From the NCBI GenBank assembly GCA_019057385.1, contig JAHQJS010000005.1, positions 320,799 to 384,798 of the forward strand: 64,000 nucleotides of DNA. Direction: 5' to 3'. A model generated the notes under the pieces. That model made no database searches. It saw nothing but the letters and a program-made list of their open reading frames with translations, and had not been told where the DNA came from. Positions 8,368 to 19,502 of the stretch are shown here, piece after piece (the first letter of the stretch is position 1; the number at the start of each line of letters is the position of its first letter). This DNA comes from Candidatus Borrarchaeum weybense (GTDB lineage: Archaea > Asgardarchaeota > Sifarchaeia > Borrarchaeales > Borrarchaeaceae). Made by a program: the position numbers and the translations under genes.

Positions 8368-8460
8368 TGGCGCCGCCGGAAGGACTCGAACCTTCGACCA
8401 GCGGGTAACTGCCAAGGGTATGTTAACAGCCCGTCACTCTACCAACTGAGCTACGGCGGC
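8368..8460 (-). tRNA. tRNA-Asn(GTT) with a 17-nt canonical 37/38 intron
   Basis: Reverse complement GCCGCCG...ACGGG-CT-GTT-A[ACATACCCTTGGCAGTT]A-CCCGC...TTCGAGT...CGGCGGC-G-CCA. Confidence 0.92.
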
Positions 8461-10165: not shown

Positions 10166-10270
10166 GGCCGGGGTGAATGATTCGAGTTTCGAACTCTTTC
10201 ATCCCCCTGGGTAGTGGTATCCTAAGGGATTGTGGCTCCCTCGATCCGGGTTCGATTCCCGGTCCCGGCC
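10166..10270 (+). tRNA. tRNA-His(GTG) with encoded G-1 and a 33-nt intron at 9/10 (10176-10208)
   Basis: Strict BHB (GGGG/CCCC helix, bulges TG|A and CT|G, inner ATGA/TCAT); AGGGA-TT-GTG-GC-TCCCT anticodon arm. Confidence 0.9.
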
Positions 10271-11764: not shown

Positions 11765-12035
11765 TCCGATACCGGTTGATCCTGCCGGACCCGACCGCTA
11801 TTGGGATGGGATTAAGCCATGCAAGTTGTGCGCTCCTAGTTATGAAGGAGAGCGGCAAAAAGCTCTGTAACGTGTAGTTAACCTCTCCTCAGGACGGGCA
11901 TACCCTCGGGAAACTGAGGTCAATTCCCGATAGTTGATTAGGCCTGGAATGGTTTTTCTTCCAAAGGTATCTTCTCATGCGAGGATACTACCTGAGGATG
12001 GGACTGCATCTGATTAGGTAGATGGTGGGGTAACG

Positions 12036-12074
12036 TGACCTTTAGTACACTCTTACACACTATCGGTCTTATAC
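12036..12074 (+). other. 16S intron 1 (39 nt, ~E. coli 265/266)
   Basis: BHB GTAA/TTAT, bulges CG|T and AC|G, inner GACC/GGTC; removal restores GGGGTAACGGCCCACC. Confidence 0.9.
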
Positions 12075-12158
12075 GCCCACCATGCCGATAATCAGTACGG
12101 GCTGTGAGAGCAGTAGCCCGGAGATGGAGACTGAGACAACGCTCCAGGGCCTACGGGC

Positions 12159-12195
<37 letters not shown>

Positions 12196-12280
12196 TGACG
12201 GGGCCATCCCAAGTGCCATCCGATAAGGGTGGCTTTTTCTCAGTGTAAAAAGCTGGGCGAATAAGGGGAGGGCAAGGCTG

Positions 12281-12406
12281 ACTGGATTGAGGCAAATCAC
12301 TAACACTATATTCTCGATGAACTATACTTCCCTAAAACGCGGCGCTTATAGTTCATCAAAAACTCTTATGCTTATCAAACTTACAAAACGCCTCATCCAG
12401 GCCTAT
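12281..12406 (+). other. 16S intron 2 (126 nt, ~514/515)
   Basis: BHB AGGC/GCCT, inner CTGGA/TCCAG; restores GGCAAGGCTGGTGCCAGCC. Confidence 0.92.
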
Positions 12407-12614
12407 GTGCCAGCCGCCGCGGTAAAACCAGCTCCTCGAGTAGTCGGGAGTATTACTGGGCCTAAAGCGTCCGTAGCCGGCTTTGTAAGTTCCTGGTCAA
12501 ACCCAGCGGCTTAACCGTTGGCTTGCTGGGGATACTGCAAAGCTTGGGAATCAGAGAGGCCAAGGGTACTAACAGGGTAGGGGTGAAATCCTGTAATCCT
12601 GTTGGGACCACCGG

Positions 12615-12645
12615 ACAGCAGAGAGACACTCTCCTGCTGGGTGAG
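12615..12645 (+). other. 16S intron 3 (31 nt, ~722/723)
   Basis: BHB CACC/GGTG, inner CAGCAG/CTGCTG; restores GACCACCGGTGGCGAAGG. Confidence 0.92.
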
Positions 12646-12716
12646 TGGCGAAGGCGCTTGGCTGGAAGATGTCCGACGGTGAGGGACGAAAGCCAGGGGA
12701 GCGAACCGGATTAGAT

Positions 12717-12747
12717 ACTTGGTGCTAATTATTGTATCATGCTAAAA
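12717..12747 (+). other. 16S intron 4 (31 nt, ~793/794)
   Basis: BHB TTAG/CTAA; restores GGATTAGATACCCGGGTAGTCC. Confidence 0.9.
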
Positions 12748-12872
12748 ACCCGGGTAGTCCTGGCTGTAAACGATGCGAGCTAGGTGTTTGCGTGGCTACG
12801 GGCTATGCAAGTGCCGTAGAGAAGTCGTTAAGCTCGCCGCCTGGGGAGTACGGCCGCAAGGCTGAAACTTAA

Positions 12873-12934
<62 letters not shown>

Positions 12935-13040
12935 AAGCCTGCGGTTTAATTGGACTCAACGCCGGGAAGCTTACCGGGGGCGACAGCTGGATGAAAGCCA
13001 GGCTGATGACCTTGCTGGACTAGCTGAGAGGAGGTGCATG

Positions 13041-13919
13041 AGGTAGTCAGGTCGTTAGCAAAACTTTTCGTCGCTTTCCTTTTCCTCTCAATAACAAAAG
13101 TCTAGATTCTTCCTGATGTCCTTTTTAATTAAAAGGGATAAGTCAGGTTGAATTCAAATGACTATTGGCGACAAAGGAAAGTTTGTTTTACTTAAAACGA
13201 AAAGTCTCATCAATCGCATACGTCAACAGCATAATGAAACAGTTCGTGGTATTTACGAGCATGTCGCAGATCTTGTTAAATGGAATACATTTCGAGACTG
13301 GGCTTATAGAGGCTGGTCACGAATGCCTTTAGAAGTATTTAGGCGACTAAAAAGTAAATACAAACTCAAAGAATCACCAAAAACGGTTACAGAAAAACAA
13401 TGGTATACACTAACTCGAACGAGAGCCGCTGAAATAATGCATAAATGCCACCCTCATAAAGAGTGGCTATCAGAAGCCGCAAAAAAAGGCGGCGAGGCTG
13501 TAAAAGAAAAATATGGTGTTAAATATCTAACAAACCTTTCTGCAAAGGCGATTCACTCGTCATCTAGTTATAGGTATGAAGACGATGATGGAAACAAATA
13601 TCGCAGCCGCTTAGAATTATCCATCGCTAAACTACTCCGAACGCATAATTTGAAGTTTATATATGAACCAGAGATTGAGGGATATGTTCCAGATTTCAAG
13701 ATTAATAATCCCCTCATCGAAGTGTGCGGTTATTTCCGTGATAAAGATTATCTTACTCGACTTAAAGTCAAACTAACTGATTTAGTCAATAAAGGCTGGC
13801 AAATAATTCTAATATGCGAGCCTAGCAAAAAAGCAGTTCTCACTGAAGCAGTTAAAGGTATATCCATAAATGCGATTAAGACAACAGATGAGTTTCGACG
13901 ATTTCTGACTACCGGCAAA
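13041..13919 (+). mobile_element. 16S intron 6 (879 nt, ~1057/1058) carrying a nuclease ORF
   Basis: Inner stem GGTAGTCAG/CTGACTACC with BHB-like bulges; restores GGTGCATGGCCGTCGCCAG. Confidence 0.92.
13158..13919 (+). CDS. Intron-encoded PD-(D/E)xK-like endonuclease (linear reading runs to 13955; circular form ends ...TTGKR*)
   Basis: YRS.LE..IAKLL....KF.YEP.....PDF.....LIEV.G nuclease core; N-terminal HTH-like segment and KGG motif. Confidence 0.75.
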
Positions 13920-14233
13920 GCCGTCGCCAGTTCGTGCCGTGAGGTGTCCTGTTAAGTCAGGCAACGAACGAGACCCCTGCGCCTAGTTGCCAGCGGATCT
14001 CTGCGGAGATGCCGGGCACACTATGCGGACCGCAGCCGATAAGGCTGAGGAAGGAGGGGGCCACGGCAGGTCAGTATGCCCCGAATCCCCCGGGCTACAC
14101 GCGGGCTGCAATGACGGGTACAATAGGTTTCGACTCCGAGAGGAGGAGGCAATCCTCAAAACCCGTCGCAGTTGGGATCGAGCGCTGCAACTCGCGCTCG
14201 TGAACATGGAATCCCTAGTAATCGCGTGTCATC

Positions 14234-14284
<51 letters not shown>

Positions 14285-14318
14285 TCCGAGTGAGCTTTAG
14301 GCGAGGCGCGTTCCGTAG

Positions 14319-14351
14319 GCAGTATAGGACAACTGTCACATACTGACGGAA
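14319..14351 (+). other. 16S intron 7 (33 nt, tip of helix 44)
   Basis: BHB CCGT/ACGG, bulges AG|G and AA|G, inner CAGTA/TACTG; the host region is variable, so less certain. Confidence 0.75.
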
Positions 14352-14380
14352 GATCGTGTCGAACCTGGGGTTCGCAAGGA

Positions 14381-14435
<55 letters not shown>

Positions 14436-15257
14436 CGTAATTAATTTATCCTTTAAGGGCCAAGCTTGAGTCTGCTCATGCGAAAAGACTGCAATCGGGA
14501 ACAATATGATGTGAACCATAAATCACCAGGTTATACATGAAATGCCATATTTTTAGCCGCTTACATAGGTGCGAATGGAACCAGGGGCTCATTAGTGTCT
14601 GGATACATACGCCATCTGGTGGATGACTTGGTTTGGGCACTGAGGAAGGTCGTGGCAAGCTGCGATAAGCCTGGGGTAGGTGCATGCTGCCTTCGAACCC
14701 AGGATTGCCGAATAGGACTTCCAATTAAGGATTAATAACCCTTAATGATCCGTAAGGATCGGGAACCCCGTGAACGGAAACATCTTAGTAACGGGAGGAA
14801 AAGAAACCAATAGGGATTCCCTTAGTAAGGGCGACTGAACGGGGAAGAGAGCAAACTGAACCCCTTAAGGATGACTTAGGGGGGATGTGGTGTGGTAGGC
14901 CTGGTTTCGGCCTACTCAATGAAGTTGAAATGGTCTGGAACGTCCCGCCGTAGAGGGTGAAAGCCCCGTAAACGTAAATTGAGAGGTCTTATGACCAGTG
15001 TCCTTGAGTACTGTGGGCTGGATACCTCGCAGGAATCTGAGAGACACTCACTCTCAACTCTAAATATGTCCCAAATCCGATAGTGCACTAGTACCTTGAG
15101 GGAAAGTTGCAAAGTACCGCGAAAGCGGGGTTAAAAGAGCCTGAAACCAGATGGTAACAGACGTGCGCGGCCCGAAAGGGTAGAGTCTCTTTGAAGGAAC
15201 CCGGAGTAATCCGGCAGTACGAAGAGAGAGGACCAGGGTTGCGCAATCCGTCTTGAA

Positions 15258-15287
15258 ATCAGACGAGATATCCTCGTCTAACAAGAA
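15258..15287 (+). other. 23S intron A (30 nt)
   Basis: BHB CTTG/CAAG, inner AGACGAG/CTCGTCT; restores GTCTTGAAACACGGGCC. Confidence 0.9.
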
Positions 15288-15641
15288 ACACGGGCCGGGG
15301 AGTTTATGGTCGTGGCGAGTTTAAGTGGATCATCCACGTAGGCGAAGGGAAACCGACAGCACGCATCTAGGCGTACCAGCTCACCAACAGTTGGGCTGTG
15401 GTCTATACCGAACCTCATTTGTCCTAATTCTTTCAATGGCTTCGGCCAACGAGAGAGGCAGGGCGCCGAGTGGACGTATGGTCTTCATCTCGACTCAGTA
15501 GTGGGTATGGGCAACTAGTCAGGTGCGAGGTCTTAATCGGCCTGGAGTCACGATTGTAAGACCCGAAAGCGAGTGATCTAGCCCTGGGCAAGATGAAGCC
15601 AGGGGAAACTCTGGTGGAGGTCTGCAGGGGTGTTGACGTAC

Positions 15642-15676
15642 AAGGAAATGAGAGATCATACTCTCGTTCTGCGTAA
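15642..15676 (+). other. 23S intron B (35 nt, helix 35 region)
   Basis: BHB ACGT/GCGT; restores GTTGACGTACAATTCAC. Confidence 0.88.
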
Positions 15677-15716
15677 AATTCACTCCCATGACCTGGGGTT
15701 AGTGGCAAAAGACCAA

Positions 15717-16719
15717 TCGCATTAACAAATGAGCCAATAACTAGCGTTCTCTAATTCCATTAAAAGCAGCCTTTTAATACTAAATTTGATATTATCTGTG
15801 AATAGTTGAATTCGGAGAATCATTGATGACTCAAAGAAAAAAATGGACTGCATATCGCATTAACAAAGATTTTGTTCGCAACAACAAAAAACGAGAACTA
15901 GCAAAATTAGCAGCATTTTTACTTACAGACGGGGGTTTATCCAGAGATAAAAGAACATATGTCATTTATTTCACAAACAAGTCTGAAGTATTACACGAAG
16001 TGTTTGAATCTCTTATAAGAGATCTTGTCCCTCAAGCTAATATGCGAAGCTCAATGTACAAAGGTGTTAAAAGAACTTACTTTAACAGTCTAGAACTTGC
16101 TGAATTGCTTTTTGAACTATCAGATTCTTATCGAACGGCACCATGCGAATCGTATCCAGTTTGCGCTAAGATTCGCGATAAACCCGAAATGATTCCTTGT
16201 ATCAAGTGCAATCAAATACGTGGATATCCCAATGCTACGTATCCTGAGATCAGCGACTTGGAATTGCTGGAAGAAATCTTGCAAATAATTGCGGATACTG
16301 AAGGTGGACCCGTTCTTTTTATTCATAGATATCCTAAATATATCTCTATAAGAAGAAGAATTGAGATAGGATGTTCGCATCCGATTCTTAAGAAACAAAT
16401 TAAACAAATGCTGGAAAAATTAGCTATTCCTAGCAAAATCGCAAAGGATACAATTAGAATTGAAGGTAAAGGAATTAGGATCTTTCGTGACAAAATAGGC
16501 TTTCGAAAGAACGTCAAAATGAGTACTGGTAACTTCGAAGGCTATAATAAGAACAGTGTATTAGAAATTATGATTATCACTAACGAATTGATAACTAAGA
16601 AAAAGTTCTTTCCAAGTAAAGTTGATAACTTGAATGCAATGTTAATGAAGGCTGTAGAACTTTTTGATAATACTTTTTCGCGAGAACGCGTTGTTGAGTT
16701 TTTAGTTAATGGGGGTTAG
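15717..16719 (+). mobile_element. 23S intron C (1003 nt, ~789/790) encoding a LAGLIDADG homing endonuclease
   Basis: BHB GACC/GGTT, bulges AA|T and AG|A, inner CGCATTAAC/GTTAATGGG; the ORF stop TAG is the last 3 nt of the intron. Confidence 0.88.
15823..16719 (+). CDS. Two-motif LAGLIDADG homing endonuclease
   Basis: LAAFLLTDGGL...IYFTNKS..L...F and LQIIADTEGG; Cys cluster between the two domains. Confidence 0.85.
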   Translation: MMTQRKKWTAYRINKDFVRNNKKRELAKLAAFLLTDGGLSRDKRTYVIYFTNKSEVLHEVFESLIRDLVPQANMRSSMYKGVKRTYFNSLELAELLFELSDSYRTAPCESYPVCAKIRDKPEMIPCIKCNQIRGYPNATYPEISDLELLEEILQIIADTEGGPVLFIHRYPKYISIRRRIEIGCSHPILKKQIKQMLEKLAIPSKIAKDTIRIEGKGIRIFRDKIGFRKNVKMSTGNFEGYNKNSVLEIMIITNELITKKKFFPSKVDNLNAMLMKAVELFDNTFSRERVVEFLVNGG

Positions 16720-16750
16720 ATAAGGAAGGGTGTGTCCCTCCTTAGGTAAA
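16720..16750 (+). other. 23S intron D (31 nt), directly abutting intron C at the same exon site
   Basis: After C is removed: GACC/GGTA helix, bulges AA|A and AA|T, inner TAAGG/CCTTA; final product GACCAATCTAACTCGC. Confidence 0.8.
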
Positions 16751-17054
16751 TCTAACTCGCTTATAGCTGGTTCCCCCCGAAGTGCATCTCAGTGCAGTCT
16801 GATCCGAGGTAGCTGGTGGGGTAGAGCACTGATTGTGGAAAGGTGGAGGAGAAATCCTTGCCGCCGCTCTCAAACTCCGAATCTGCCAGCGCCGTAGACG
16901 GTTGGAAACGGGCGGCCGGGCGTAAGGTCCGGCGCCGAGAGAGGAACAACTCTGACTGCGGTTAAGGTCCCTAAGTGCTAGCTAAGTGTGATCATGAAGG
17001 CTGTGGGCAGTCTTAGACAGTGGGGAGGTAGGCTTAGAAGCAGCCATCCTCTAA

Positions 17055-17075
17055 ACTGCTAAAAAGCAGAGAGAA
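17055..17075 (+). other. 23S intron E (21 nt, GTPase-associated region ~1085)
   Basis: BHB CTCT/AGAG, inner CTGCT/AGCAG. Confidence 0.88.
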
Positions 17076-17675
17076 TGAACGCGTAACAGCGCACCCATTG
17101 AGACTGTCCGCGCCGAAAATGGACGGGGCTTAAGCTAGCCACCGATACCGCGGAGCTGACGAAAACTTAGCATGAATCGTCATCTCATTTTCGAATGATT
17201 TGATTTACTCATGTTAATTGAGTACTCAGTTGGTAGGGGGGCGAGCCGGTTGGGCGGAAGCTGGGCTGTGAAGTCCAGTGGACCGACCGGTTTCGCAGAT
17301 CCCGGTGGTAGTAACAGCGTAGTCGGGTGAAAATCCCGATCGCCGGAAGGGCAAGGGTTCCTCGGCAATGCGTCGTCAGCCGAGGGTTAGTCGGTCCTAA
17401 GTCTGGGCGTAAGTCGCGTAAGGCGAAAGGGTAAACGGTTTATATTCCGTTACTACGAGGATACACGCGGTAACGCAAGCCAAGATTCTGACGCTTTCGG
17501 ATAGGCCGATTAGAGCTATCGCTCTAATTAAATGTAGAAACCTCAGGAGTACCGTAATGGTGAGAATGAGGTGAATGCATGAATAGCTTTCCGTAATAGG
17601 TGAGTTCGGTCAACTCCAGGAGCCATTGAAAAAGGACTTGGAAGGATTCTTCGTATCCGTACCCAGAACTGACAC

Positions 17676-17726
17676 TTAGATCGTACAGGAACGTGACAAT
17701 CTAGTCATGCGGACGATTTAGTCAAA
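17676..17726 (+). other. 23S intron F (51 nt, ~1617/1618)
   Basis: BHB TGAC/GTCA, inner TAGATCGT/ACGATTTA; restores CTGACACAGGTG. Confidence 0.92.
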
Positions 17727-18384
17727 AGGTGCCCCTAGGTGAGCAGCCTAAGGCGTTTCGGGTGAACTCTGGGCTAGGGAAATCGGCAAATTGGCCCCGT
17801 ACCTTCGGAAGAAGGGGTGCCTACGGTCTTGGGTCGCAAACTTGGGACCGTAGGTCGCAGTGACCAGGAAGTGCTATCTGTTTAATAAAAACATAGCTAA
17901 CTGCTAGCGCGAAAGCGTGTGTACAGTTAGTGAGTCCTGGCCAGTGGCGGTAAGTTAAACCTGAGTTCAATCGGGCGAAGCTCCGCTAAACGCCGGGAGT
18001 AACTATAACTCTCTTAAGGTAGCCAAATGCCTTGCCGGATAAGTACCGGCGTGCATGAAGGGAGCAATGAGCGCTTTACTGTCCCAGCCTGGAACCCGGT
18101 GAACCCACTACCTGGCGAACAGTCCAGGGAGTCCTTGCGGGAAGAGAAGACCCCGTGGAGCTTTACTGCAGCCTGTGCCTGTGCTACGATCGTTGATGCA
18201 GAGCGTAGTCGGGAGCCGTTAATCCCAGCCTCTTCGGGGGTTGGAGTAGGCAACCTTGGAACACCGACCTTCTTTGATTGTATCGCTAACCGGAACGAAC
18301 GTTCTGGAACAAGTGCAGGTGGGCAGTTTCGCTGGGGCGGCAGACCCTTGAAAATGTATCAAGGGTGCCCAAAGGTCAGCTCAG

Positions 18385-18416
18385 AATGCAATTACGTAAG
18401 TGAGTTGCATGAGTAA
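18385..18416 (+). other. 23S intron G (32 nt)
   Basis: BHB GCTC/GAGT, inner ATGCAATT/AGTTGCAT. Confidence 0.9.
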
Positions 18417-18427
18417 GTGGGTCAGAA

Positions 18428-18470
18428 TCAACGGATGAGATTCTGGCTATGACCTTATCAGTTGCTGAAT
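18428..18470 (+). other. 23S intron H (43 nt)
   Basis: BHB TCAG/CTGA, inner CAAC/GTTG; restores GGTGGGTCAGAAATCCACC. Confidence 0.9.
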
Positions 18471-18488
18471 ATCCACCGTAGAGCGTAA

Positions 18489-18519
18489 AGGTGAAGGTGA
18501 CCACCACCTTGCCATGTAG
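18489..18519 (+). other. 23S intron I (31 nt)
   Basis: BHB GCGT/ATGT, inner AAGGTG/CACCTT; restores GAGCGTAAAGGTAAAAGC. Confidence 0.88.
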
Positions 18520-18642
18520 AGGTAAAAGCTGGCTTGACTGTATTCTGACCAGTAAAGAATGCAGGAACGAAAGTTGGGCTTAGCGATCCTCAATACCTTA
18601 TCAGTGGGGGTTTGAGGTGACAGAAAAGTTACCCCGGGGATA

Positions 18643-18756
18643 AATGCGTCAGTTTTGTGAATATAGAAAGTGTGTAGACAAAGCTTAGTAAAGTTGTATG
18701 GGTAATTTAGCTTTGACGATTGTACAACTTTATGAGCGTCTGCGGCGCATTCCCAA
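18643..18756 (+). other. 23S intron J (114 nt, A2450/A2451, peptidyl-transferase centre)
   Basis: BHB GGGA/TCCC, inner ATGCGTC/GGCGCAT; restores GGGGATAACAG. Confidence 0.92.
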
Positions 18757-18872
18757 ACAGAGTCGTCGCGGGCAAGAGCCCATATCGACCCCGCGGCTTG
18801 CTACCTCGATGTCGGCTCTTCCTATCCTCGATGTGCAGCAGCGTCGAAGGGTGGGGTTGTTCGCCCATTAAA

Positions 18873-18904
18873 AAGGAGGCGAAAAATACCTCTCTCCTTA
18901 ATAG
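18873..18904 (+). other. 23S intron K (32 nt, ~2566)
   Basis: BHB ATTA/TAAT, inner AGGAG/CTCCT. Confidence 0.9.
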
Positions 18905-19059
<155 letters not shown>

Positions 19060-19502
19060 ACAGGTTGGATTCTATCTGCAAGGACTGCCGGTGGTCTGAG
19101 GGTAGGGTGTTCTTAGTACGAGAGGAACGGAACGTCGGAGCCTCTAGTGTACCAGTTGTCCGAAAGGGCAGAGCTGGGCAGCCACGCTCTAACCGATAAG
19201 AGCTGAAAGCATCTAAGCTCGAAGCGGGTCCCGAAAAGAGACCACCAATCACCAACAGAGGAGTTAGGGTGACCGTCCGTAACTGTTGGGGACGAGGACT
19301 CCAGGAAAACACTGGTTTGATAGAGCTGAGGTGTAAGTGTCGAGGGTACAGAGATGGTACTCTTAGTATTGTACACTCGCCTAAATCCCTCCAACCTCTT
19401 GGTCATGTACATAACCGTCTCTTCGGAGATAGTTGTGTCGTGATTAATGTTGTTGGGCCGAGGCACTCAGCCTGCAGCCACTAAACGTCCGAGTGTTCAG
19501 AC

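Follow-up and report, generated by a model that had tools for sequence, protein, structure and literature searches.

A probable pair of abutting introns with ordered excision at a single 23S rRNA site in Candidatus Borrarchaeum weybense

Archaeal introns bounded by a bulge-helix-bulge (BHB) splicing motif are usually taken as independent units with one motif each. A 64,000-nucleotide (nt) stretch of the Asgard archaeon Candidatus Borrarchaeum weybense (GenBank assembly GCA_019057385.1, contig JAHQJS010000005.1, positions 320,799 to 384,798 of the forward strand; hereafter the window, with coordinates counted from its first base) raises the question of how such introns could be removed from 23S ribosomal RNA (rRNA) when two of them touch and both call on the same exon bases. 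The original prediction, made from the letters of this DNA, placed a 1003-nt intron with a LAGLIDADG open reading frame (ORF) and a 31-nt mini-intron side by side at one 23S site and proposed that they are spliced in order. Every one of its coordinates and pairings is present in the sequence, and the 1034-nt insertion is, in our assessment, probably made up of two archaeal BHB (tRNA-type; tRNA, transfer RNA) introns that lie end to end and share the exon strand GACC as central helix.

Matches to Rfam place the archaeal 23S rRNA gene at 14595–19398 and the 16S rRNA gene at 11769–14434, both far longer than the respective models, and the identity of the site as 23S is also backed by the Rfam large-subunit (LSU) alignment. 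The region is present in a single copy in the genome. Among public sequencing runs, six metatranscriptomes from wetland contain 0.26–0.31 of the words of this 23S gene and two DNA runs contain 0.82, shares that carry no weight in the argument here. Comparison by blastn with intron-free 23S genes from genomes of the same phylum revealed several insertions, including 15717–16750, all 1034 nt of which are absent from the intron-free relatives; the same-genus genomes (G001–G004) gave no rRNA match in this comparison. The insertion point corresponds to A789/U790 of the E. coli 23S rRNA (a slash between bases or positions marks a junction or cut throughout), with the homologous GGCCAAUC being E. coli 784–791, and it falls within the conserved GACCAAUC segment. 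Across the site intron-free relatives read ...GGCAAAAGACCAATCTA..., in short form GACCAATCTA (GACCAA/UCUAA), the intron-free site being written as GGCAAAAGACCAA/TCTAACTCGC, and none of the 14 such relatives read at 789/790 has a hairpin there. The outer boundaries are ambiguous within AATC when judged from sequence alone, and BHB geometry picks 15716/15717. Excising the large and the mini unit together restores GACCAAUCUAAC, and the mature junction GACCAA/UCUAAC agrees with the intron-free relatives. Since these relatives read GACCAATCTA, the whole 1034 nt is insertion and zero exon bases lie between the two units, which bears out the earlier statement that the introns abut directly.

The motif that bounds the large intron, BHB-1, has a canonical core consisting of a 4-bp central helix and two 3-nt bulges on opposite strands (Table 1). 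A BHB formed by GACC and GGTT around a 1003-nt intron ending in the ORF stop had been predicted, and we recovered it with four of four central pairs, 3-nt bulges and eight of nine inner pairs; the inner helix, which was absent from that prediction, comprises C15718-G16713, a G.G mismatch and seven Watson-Crick pairs between 15720–26 and 16705–11. The last three bases of the intron are the stop codon TAG (UAG). BHB-1 departs from the strict hBHBh' form in that its outer helix is limited to A15710-U16721, with the mini-intron hairpin standing in its place; with no outer helix at BHB-1 the motif is therefore of the relaxed HBh' form. An initial, over-permissive BHB scan returned 3369 matches and was superseded by a fixed-site test, in which the 5' site was held and a complete central helix (4/4) together with at least 8/9 inner pairs was required. 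Position 16719 is the sole position that passes this test in 128 kb (the 64-kb window, both strands), whilst of 5000 shuffled inserts 8 pass. The 14 nt of ATCGCATTAACAAA occur twice as an exact direct repeat, at 15716–15729 and 15854–15867; the first copy covers the 5' splice site together with the inner-helix 5' strand, and the second lies within ORF codons 11–16 (AYRINK; YRLDK in homologs) and could also pair with 16705–11.

The hairpin of the mini-intron directly flanks the 3' bulge of BHB-1, and the arrangement suggests the following course of events. In the precursor the large intron would pair, through the GGUU at its 3' end, with GACC, with the nine-position inner helix stacked on top, and the splicing endonuclease would cut at 15716/15717 and 16719/16720. 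RtcB would then circularise the 1003-nt intron and ligate exon 1 to A16720, a step that would free GACC and make a new 5' bulge, AA/A, from A15715, A15716 and A16720; the last of these would pass from the BHB-1 3' bulge to third place in the second 5' bulge. The 31-nt unit would now offer a relaxed BHB (BHB-2) with ACC:GGU as central pairs and AAA and AAU as bulges; its inner helix would be the hairpin, and an outer helix would be missing. Renewed cutting and ligation would then give GACCAA/UCUAAC. Both central helices need the same four exon bases and so cannot coexist. The claim that the second BHB is complete only after the first splice thus stands, as GACC is shared and the second 5' bulge arises only with the first ligation. 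The second BHB had itself been predicted on this same GACC; the motif is present and GACC is indeed reused, but only three of the four central pairs can form. For the window organism, the sites of cutting, the sequence of the two splices and the loss of the 31 nt are predictions.

Table 1. Positions in the window of the predicted elements of the composite insertion at 23S site 789/790 and of the other BHB introns of the same gene.
Feature	Position	Strand	Details
Exon-1 strand GACC	15711..15714	+	central 4-bp helix (H) of both BHBs
5' bulge AA/U, BHB-1	15715..15717	+	cut after A15716, inferred from canonical geometry
Large intron, 1003 nt	15717..16719	+	bounded by BHB-1
Inner helix h'1, 5' strand CGCAUUAAC	15718..15726	+	8/9 positions paired
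LAGLIDADG homing endonuclease ORF, 298 aa	15823..16719	+	likely start ATG 15826
Inner helix h'1, 3' strand GUUAAUGGG	16705..16713	+	overlaps final ORF codons
H'1 GGUU	16714..16717	+	4/4 pairs with exon GACC (G-U, A-U, C-G, C-G)
3' bulge AG/A, BHB-1	16718..16720	+	cut after G16719 (inferred)
Mini-intron, 31 nt	16720..16750	+	A, 24-nt hairpin, GGUA, AA
Hairpin	16721..16744	+	6 bp, bulged A, 3 bp, 5-nt loop; would-be BHB-2 inner helix
H'2 GGUA	16745..16748	+	3/4 pairs with exon GACC (ACC:GGU; G.A at outer end)
3' bulge AA/U, BHB-2	16749..16751	+	exon 2 begins U16751
Other 23S BHB intron, 30 nt	15258-15287		perfect 4-bp central helix, 3-nt bulges
Other 23S BHB intron, 35 nt	15642-15676		perfect 4-bp central helix, 3-nt bulges
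Other 23S BHB intron, 114 nt	18643-18756		perfect 4-bp central helix, 3-nt bulges
Other 23S BHB intron, 32 nt	18873-18904		perfect 4-bp central helix, 3-nt bulges

Splicing of the pair in two steps is likely because the pair recurs with covariation in relatives and because a related 1002-nt circle is closed at the BHB-1 cuts. The protein family is rare (8 matches among 5.8 billion clusters, with a few more among the 50% representatives), and the close homologs of the ORF form one clade (support 100/99). The composite pair was found at the same 23S site in six metagenomic sequences, whose ORFs show amino acid identities to that of the window of 86% (L033), 64% (L052), 47–48% (L032 and L036) and 44% (L053/L054). 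All close homologs of the ORF with readable DNA lie at this site with the same pair of units, and both parts are present in each of the six relatives with a readable 3' junction.

Across these sequences BHB-1 is canonical and strongly conserved and BHB-2 is consistently weaker. GACC is identical in all relatives with a readable 5' junction (L032, L034, L036 and L053), the 5' bulge of BHB-1 in relatives is AA/A, and the motif is kept with four of four central pairs in six of the seven homologous sequences, the intron strand of the central helix being GGUU in L033 and L037, GGUC in L032, L036 and L053, and GGUA in L052. Its 3' bulge is always 3 nt long (AGA in five sequences, CAA in L036). The inner helix keeps 8–11 of 13 pairs with compensatory changes, which between the window and L037 are C-G to U-A, U-A to G-C and C-G to G-C and fall at positions 3, 6 and 9. 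Five lineages have a mini unit of 31 nt, and that of L053 has 33 nt. According to RNAalifold, five of the nine pairs of its hairpin have changed on both sides in a compensatory manner, whilst its tail keeps three exon pairs in three registers (GGUA, AGUC and GUCG), each of which yields the correct mature junction.

The circle is L037, a Logan contig from run SRR33659056, which carries a homologous ORF (58% identity to that of the window) and has no mini-intron inside. Its first 30 bases are repeated at its end (k-1 for a k=31 assembler), giving a closed 1002-nt cycle, and the closure, ...CUUCAUAAG GGUU AG/U CUUAUGAAG..., lies exactly at the BHB-1 cuts: a 3' cut of the BHB-1 type is followed directly by base 3 of the 5' bulge, and the junction is part of a 7-nt loop closed by a perfect inner helix of 9 bp. 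Since genomic DNA would lack such a closure junction, the simplest source of L037 would be an excised circular intron RNA. If the host of L037 has the pair, the circle would represent the two-step excision, and if the host has the large intron only, it would represent an independent large unit with the same boundary; both readings support a split of the insert into 1003 and 31 nt. The L037 ORF contains one internal stop (SYRT-stop-PCKS), and the endonuclease gene may be decaying in that population.

Predicted folds and the splicing machinery of the genome also bear on the proposed order. For L032 and L036, folding the junction context yields BHB-1 as the structure of minimum energy, and the same holds for the window once transcription reaches 16720; every predicted intermediate of the first splice folds with a 3-bp exon:tail helix beside the hairpin. 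The GACC:GGUA conformer of the window is ~2 kcal/mol worse than BHB-1, and the window conformers lie within 3.6 kcal/mol, so that folding energies alone do not choose among them. The genome encodes two EndA genes (PF01974; 99 and 77 bits) and RtcB (PF01139) at two loci. The two EndA paralogs suggest a broad-specificity endonuclease of the alpha-beta type, and heterotetrameric (broad-specificity) endonucleases are reported to accept and cut relaxed motifs (PMC4090602, PMC5829648). A protein-level search that used exon 2 in its minus-strand frame found no spurious ORFs spanning the junction.

Several points weigh against two ordered steps. When exon 2 is included in the fold, an 8-bp helix, GGGUUAGA:UCUAACUC, beats BHB-1 by 1.6 kcal/mol in the window. 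BHB-2 is weak, having three of four central pairs, no outer helix and a register that varies among lineages, and in L053 it fits only with a one-base shift. The L037 circle may come from an allele with the large intron only, and the second 3' cut could be made on the nicked complex before ligation, in which case no intermediate junction would ever exist. As to the competing helix, GGGUUAGA (16715–16722, at the large-intron 3' end) is complementary to UCUAACUC (16751–16758, at the start of exon 2); it is ~7–8 bp long in L033 (by eye) and is lost in L032, L036 and L053. In addition, GGGGUUAG recurs in exon 1 at 15695–15702.

The same features can be read in other ways. Excision of the whole 1034 nt in one step, by cuts at 15716/15717 and 16750/16751 with 16719/16720 rarely or never cut, would proceed through a relaxed bulge-helix-loop conformer (ACC:GGU on the hairpin) or through half-sites cut independently. 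The composite acts as a single unit in DNA, the ACC:GGU conformer trails BHB-1 by only ~2 kcal/mol, and relaxed motifs are reported to be cut by broad-specificity endonucleases (PMC4090602, PMC5829648), yet in the unspliced RNA the 5' 'bulge' of this conformer would be ~1006 nt, the conservation of BHB-1 (which has bulges of exactly 3 nt, shows covariation and retains four of four pairs in six of the seven sequences) would be left without a role, and the closure of the L037 circle falls at the internal site instead of beyond a mini-intron; we consider a single step unlikely. The least probable of the readings weighed here is that only the large intron is spliced and the 31-nt hairpin is kept in mature 23S rRNA as a small expansion, where it may replace the missing outer helix in cis beside the BHB-1 3' bulge. 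Whilst the hairpin does begin right after that bulge, its covariation fits any structural role and BHB-2 is weak, a layout of 1 base, hairpin, 4 nt and 2 nt is common to all lineages (with a one-base shift in the 33-nt L053), and the tail holds three exon pairs in three registers with the correct mature junction each time. Furthermore, the hairpin was never seen without the large intron and is absent from the 14 intron-free relatives and from genome G008, its site breaks the conserved GACCAAUC, and mini-introns of similar size in the same rRNA have perfect BHBs.

A further alternative concerns the history of the pair rather than its splicing. According to the original prediction the mini-intron came first, the LAGLIDADG intron homed into its 5' junction and the nuclease targets the mini-bearing allele. 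Mini-introns of ~31 nt are abundant in this rRNA, and abutment without a spacer is expected from insertion at an existing splice junction; nevertheless such a history appears very unlikely. Relatives carrying only the 31-nt intron, which the prediction had proposed to look for, were sought in JGI metagenome contigs and GTDB species genomes with the pattern AAAGACCAA N{15,45} TCTAR N{5,9} RTAGCTGGTT, and no mini-only allele with those exact flanks was found, there being one match in each set, neither of them rRNA. Both parts are present at all six readable 3' junctions, and the only empty allele close to a carrier, that of G008, is without both: the exons of L032 match those of G008 at 98.6% identity over 574 nt and at 99.9% over 971 nt, yet none of the composite is present in G008. 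Differences in the mini-intron also track the ORF groups (window, L033 and L052 versus L032 and L036 versus L053), which implies that the two parts have been together since before the family diversified. These results speak against both the invasion of a resident mini-intron and a nuclease directed at the mini-intron allele, as the polymorphism is one of 'pair or nothing'. The presence-absence polymorphism between L032 and G008 is consistent with mobility and is no proof of it. At the DNA level the pair thus appears to behave as one unit that is inherited, gained and lost together, and 'pair or nothing' would fit either homing into, or precise loss to, GACCAA/TCTAA, this intron-free site being the likely target of the nuclease.

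The ORF has the features of a monomeric two-motif LAGLIDADG enzyme, with two helices, a beta-sheet saddle and an acidic residue ending each motif. It matches Pfam LAGLIDADG_3 with 27.4 bits (cut-off 22.5) and contains the motifs LLTDGG (D36) and ADTEGG (E160), with D36 and G161 nearly invariant among homologs. In an AlphaFold2 (AF2) model with a predicted local distance difference test (pLDDT) score of 94, helices span residues 23–33 and 146–160 and are each followed by strands; the best Foldseek matches were I-LtrI, E-DreI and the archaeal I-Tsp061I (template modelling (TM) scores of ~0.45–0.56), whilst a sequence search of PDB with the ORF gave no match. The endonuclease gene of the window looks intact. 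Between the two LAGLIDADG domains lies an insert with four cysteines (C108, C114, C126 and C129; residues 104–130, window ~16132–16212), of which C108 and C114 hardly vary among 30 homologs, and the segment may bind zinc. In the window, L033 and L037 the large intron ends with the stop codon UAG; in L052 (L052:647-693) the stop is UAA, which coincides with mini-intron bases 2–4, and the frame crosses the predicted first 3' cut. A dedicated search for short fragments among the homologs (<163 aa) found none. Distant homologs (P0011 and P0012, ~36% identity) are located elsewhere, one adjoining a 16S-like stretch and one outside rRNA, and when 400 genomes from the phylum were searched with the protein, all matches were distant (<=36% identity), some of them sitting in long ORFs that could be inteins.

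The closest known kinds of system are archaeal rRNA LAGLIDADG introns and nested tRNA BHB introns. Archaeal rRNA LAGLIDADG introns (I-DmoI, I-PorI, I-Tsp061I) are likewise BHB-bounded and encode a monomeric two-motif enzyme, and they form stable RNA circles, for which the candidate counterpart here is the L037 contig, a homolog from another host. In contrast to them, the present intron has an Asgard host and a second intron attached at its 3' cut site, and its protein has no PDB sequence match and a four-cysteine insert between the domains. Organelle twintrons are group II/III or group I introns within introns, that is, self-splicing ribozymes. They resemble the composite in that sequential splicing is required to restore the exon junction, whereas here cutting would be done by a protein enzyme and the introns are side by side, not nested. 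For nested archaeal tRNA BHB introns, PMC3728597 (citing Tocchini-Valentini 2009 PNAS) describes a last motif that forms only after the others are removed. The nested pre-tRNA introns of Thermoproteales share with our case the predicted dependence of one BHB on the prior removal of another, the use of EndA and RtcB, and relaxed motifs without an outer helix; our case differs in its 23S rRNA host, in having as one partner a 1-kb intron that encodes a homing endonuclease, in the exact abutment of two units on four shared exon bases, and in the conservation and apparent mobility of the pair as a unit. A 2003 FEBS Lett case, represented by its title in PMC4496867, likewise links an ORF-bearing archaeal rRNA intron functionally to a nearby ORF-less one; as far as that source goes, those introns are separated by exon, whereas the two described here are in direct contact and have a splice-site helix in common. 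The tRNA genes of Atabeyarchaeia and Freyarchaeia offer a similar Asgard host with many short BHB introns at non-canonical positions (PMC11291895; bioRxiv 10.64898/2026.10.13.758758), but those papers concern tRNA genes, and 'rRNA' is absent from bioRxiv 10.64898/2026.10.13.758758. Site 789/790 was not found among the intron sites in the archaeal rRNA intron literature searched, and the literature searched held no report of an ORF-bearing rRNA intron that touches a mini-intron, uses the same central-helix strand and is conserved together with it as a mobile unit.

The composite is not the only insertion in these rRNA genes. Removal of each of the four other BHB introns in the 23S gene (Table 1) restores the consensus, and these introns mostly end in AA. 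Relative to the intron-free genes the 23S gene also has insertions of ~140, 55 and 105 nt at 15366–15517, 17157–17230 and 18385–18523 respectively, which could be introns or Asgard-type expansion segments. Insertions in the 16S gene total ~1.19 kb, and a 265-aa ORF at 13158–13955 has no significant Pfam match. Amongst the tRNA matches, that at 8371–8460 is 90 nt long and that at 10209–10262 covers only model positions 10–63; both may be intron-interrupted tRNA genes.

With one exon strand and one 5' cut site shared by the two units, the second motif is impossible before the first splice, so that two-step splicing would impose an obligatory order on 23S rRNA maturation. A homing-endonuclease intron could also carry a second intron along with it as one mobile unit, and a junction of touching introns in an Asgard lineage with widespread short BHB introns is a natural place to test intron gain. 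Two further ideas, which together we hold to be rather unlikely, are that the hairpin is a working part of a two-step relay or that the abutment is the footprint of intron gain at the RNA level. As a relay, the hairpin could first replace the unavailable outer helix, making the 3' bulge of BHB-1 a true bulge, and could then become the inner helix of the second BHB, which excises the hairpin itself; if this is true, a homing intron could settle at rRNA sites that are unable to form a full BHB alone. As a gain at the RNA level, RtcB could have joined a small intron RNA into a site cut by EndA, and the product could later have been copied into DNA, which, if true, would provide a mechanism for the spread of ~31-nt introns through the tRNA, rRNA and messenger RNA (mRNA) genes of these Asgard archaea.

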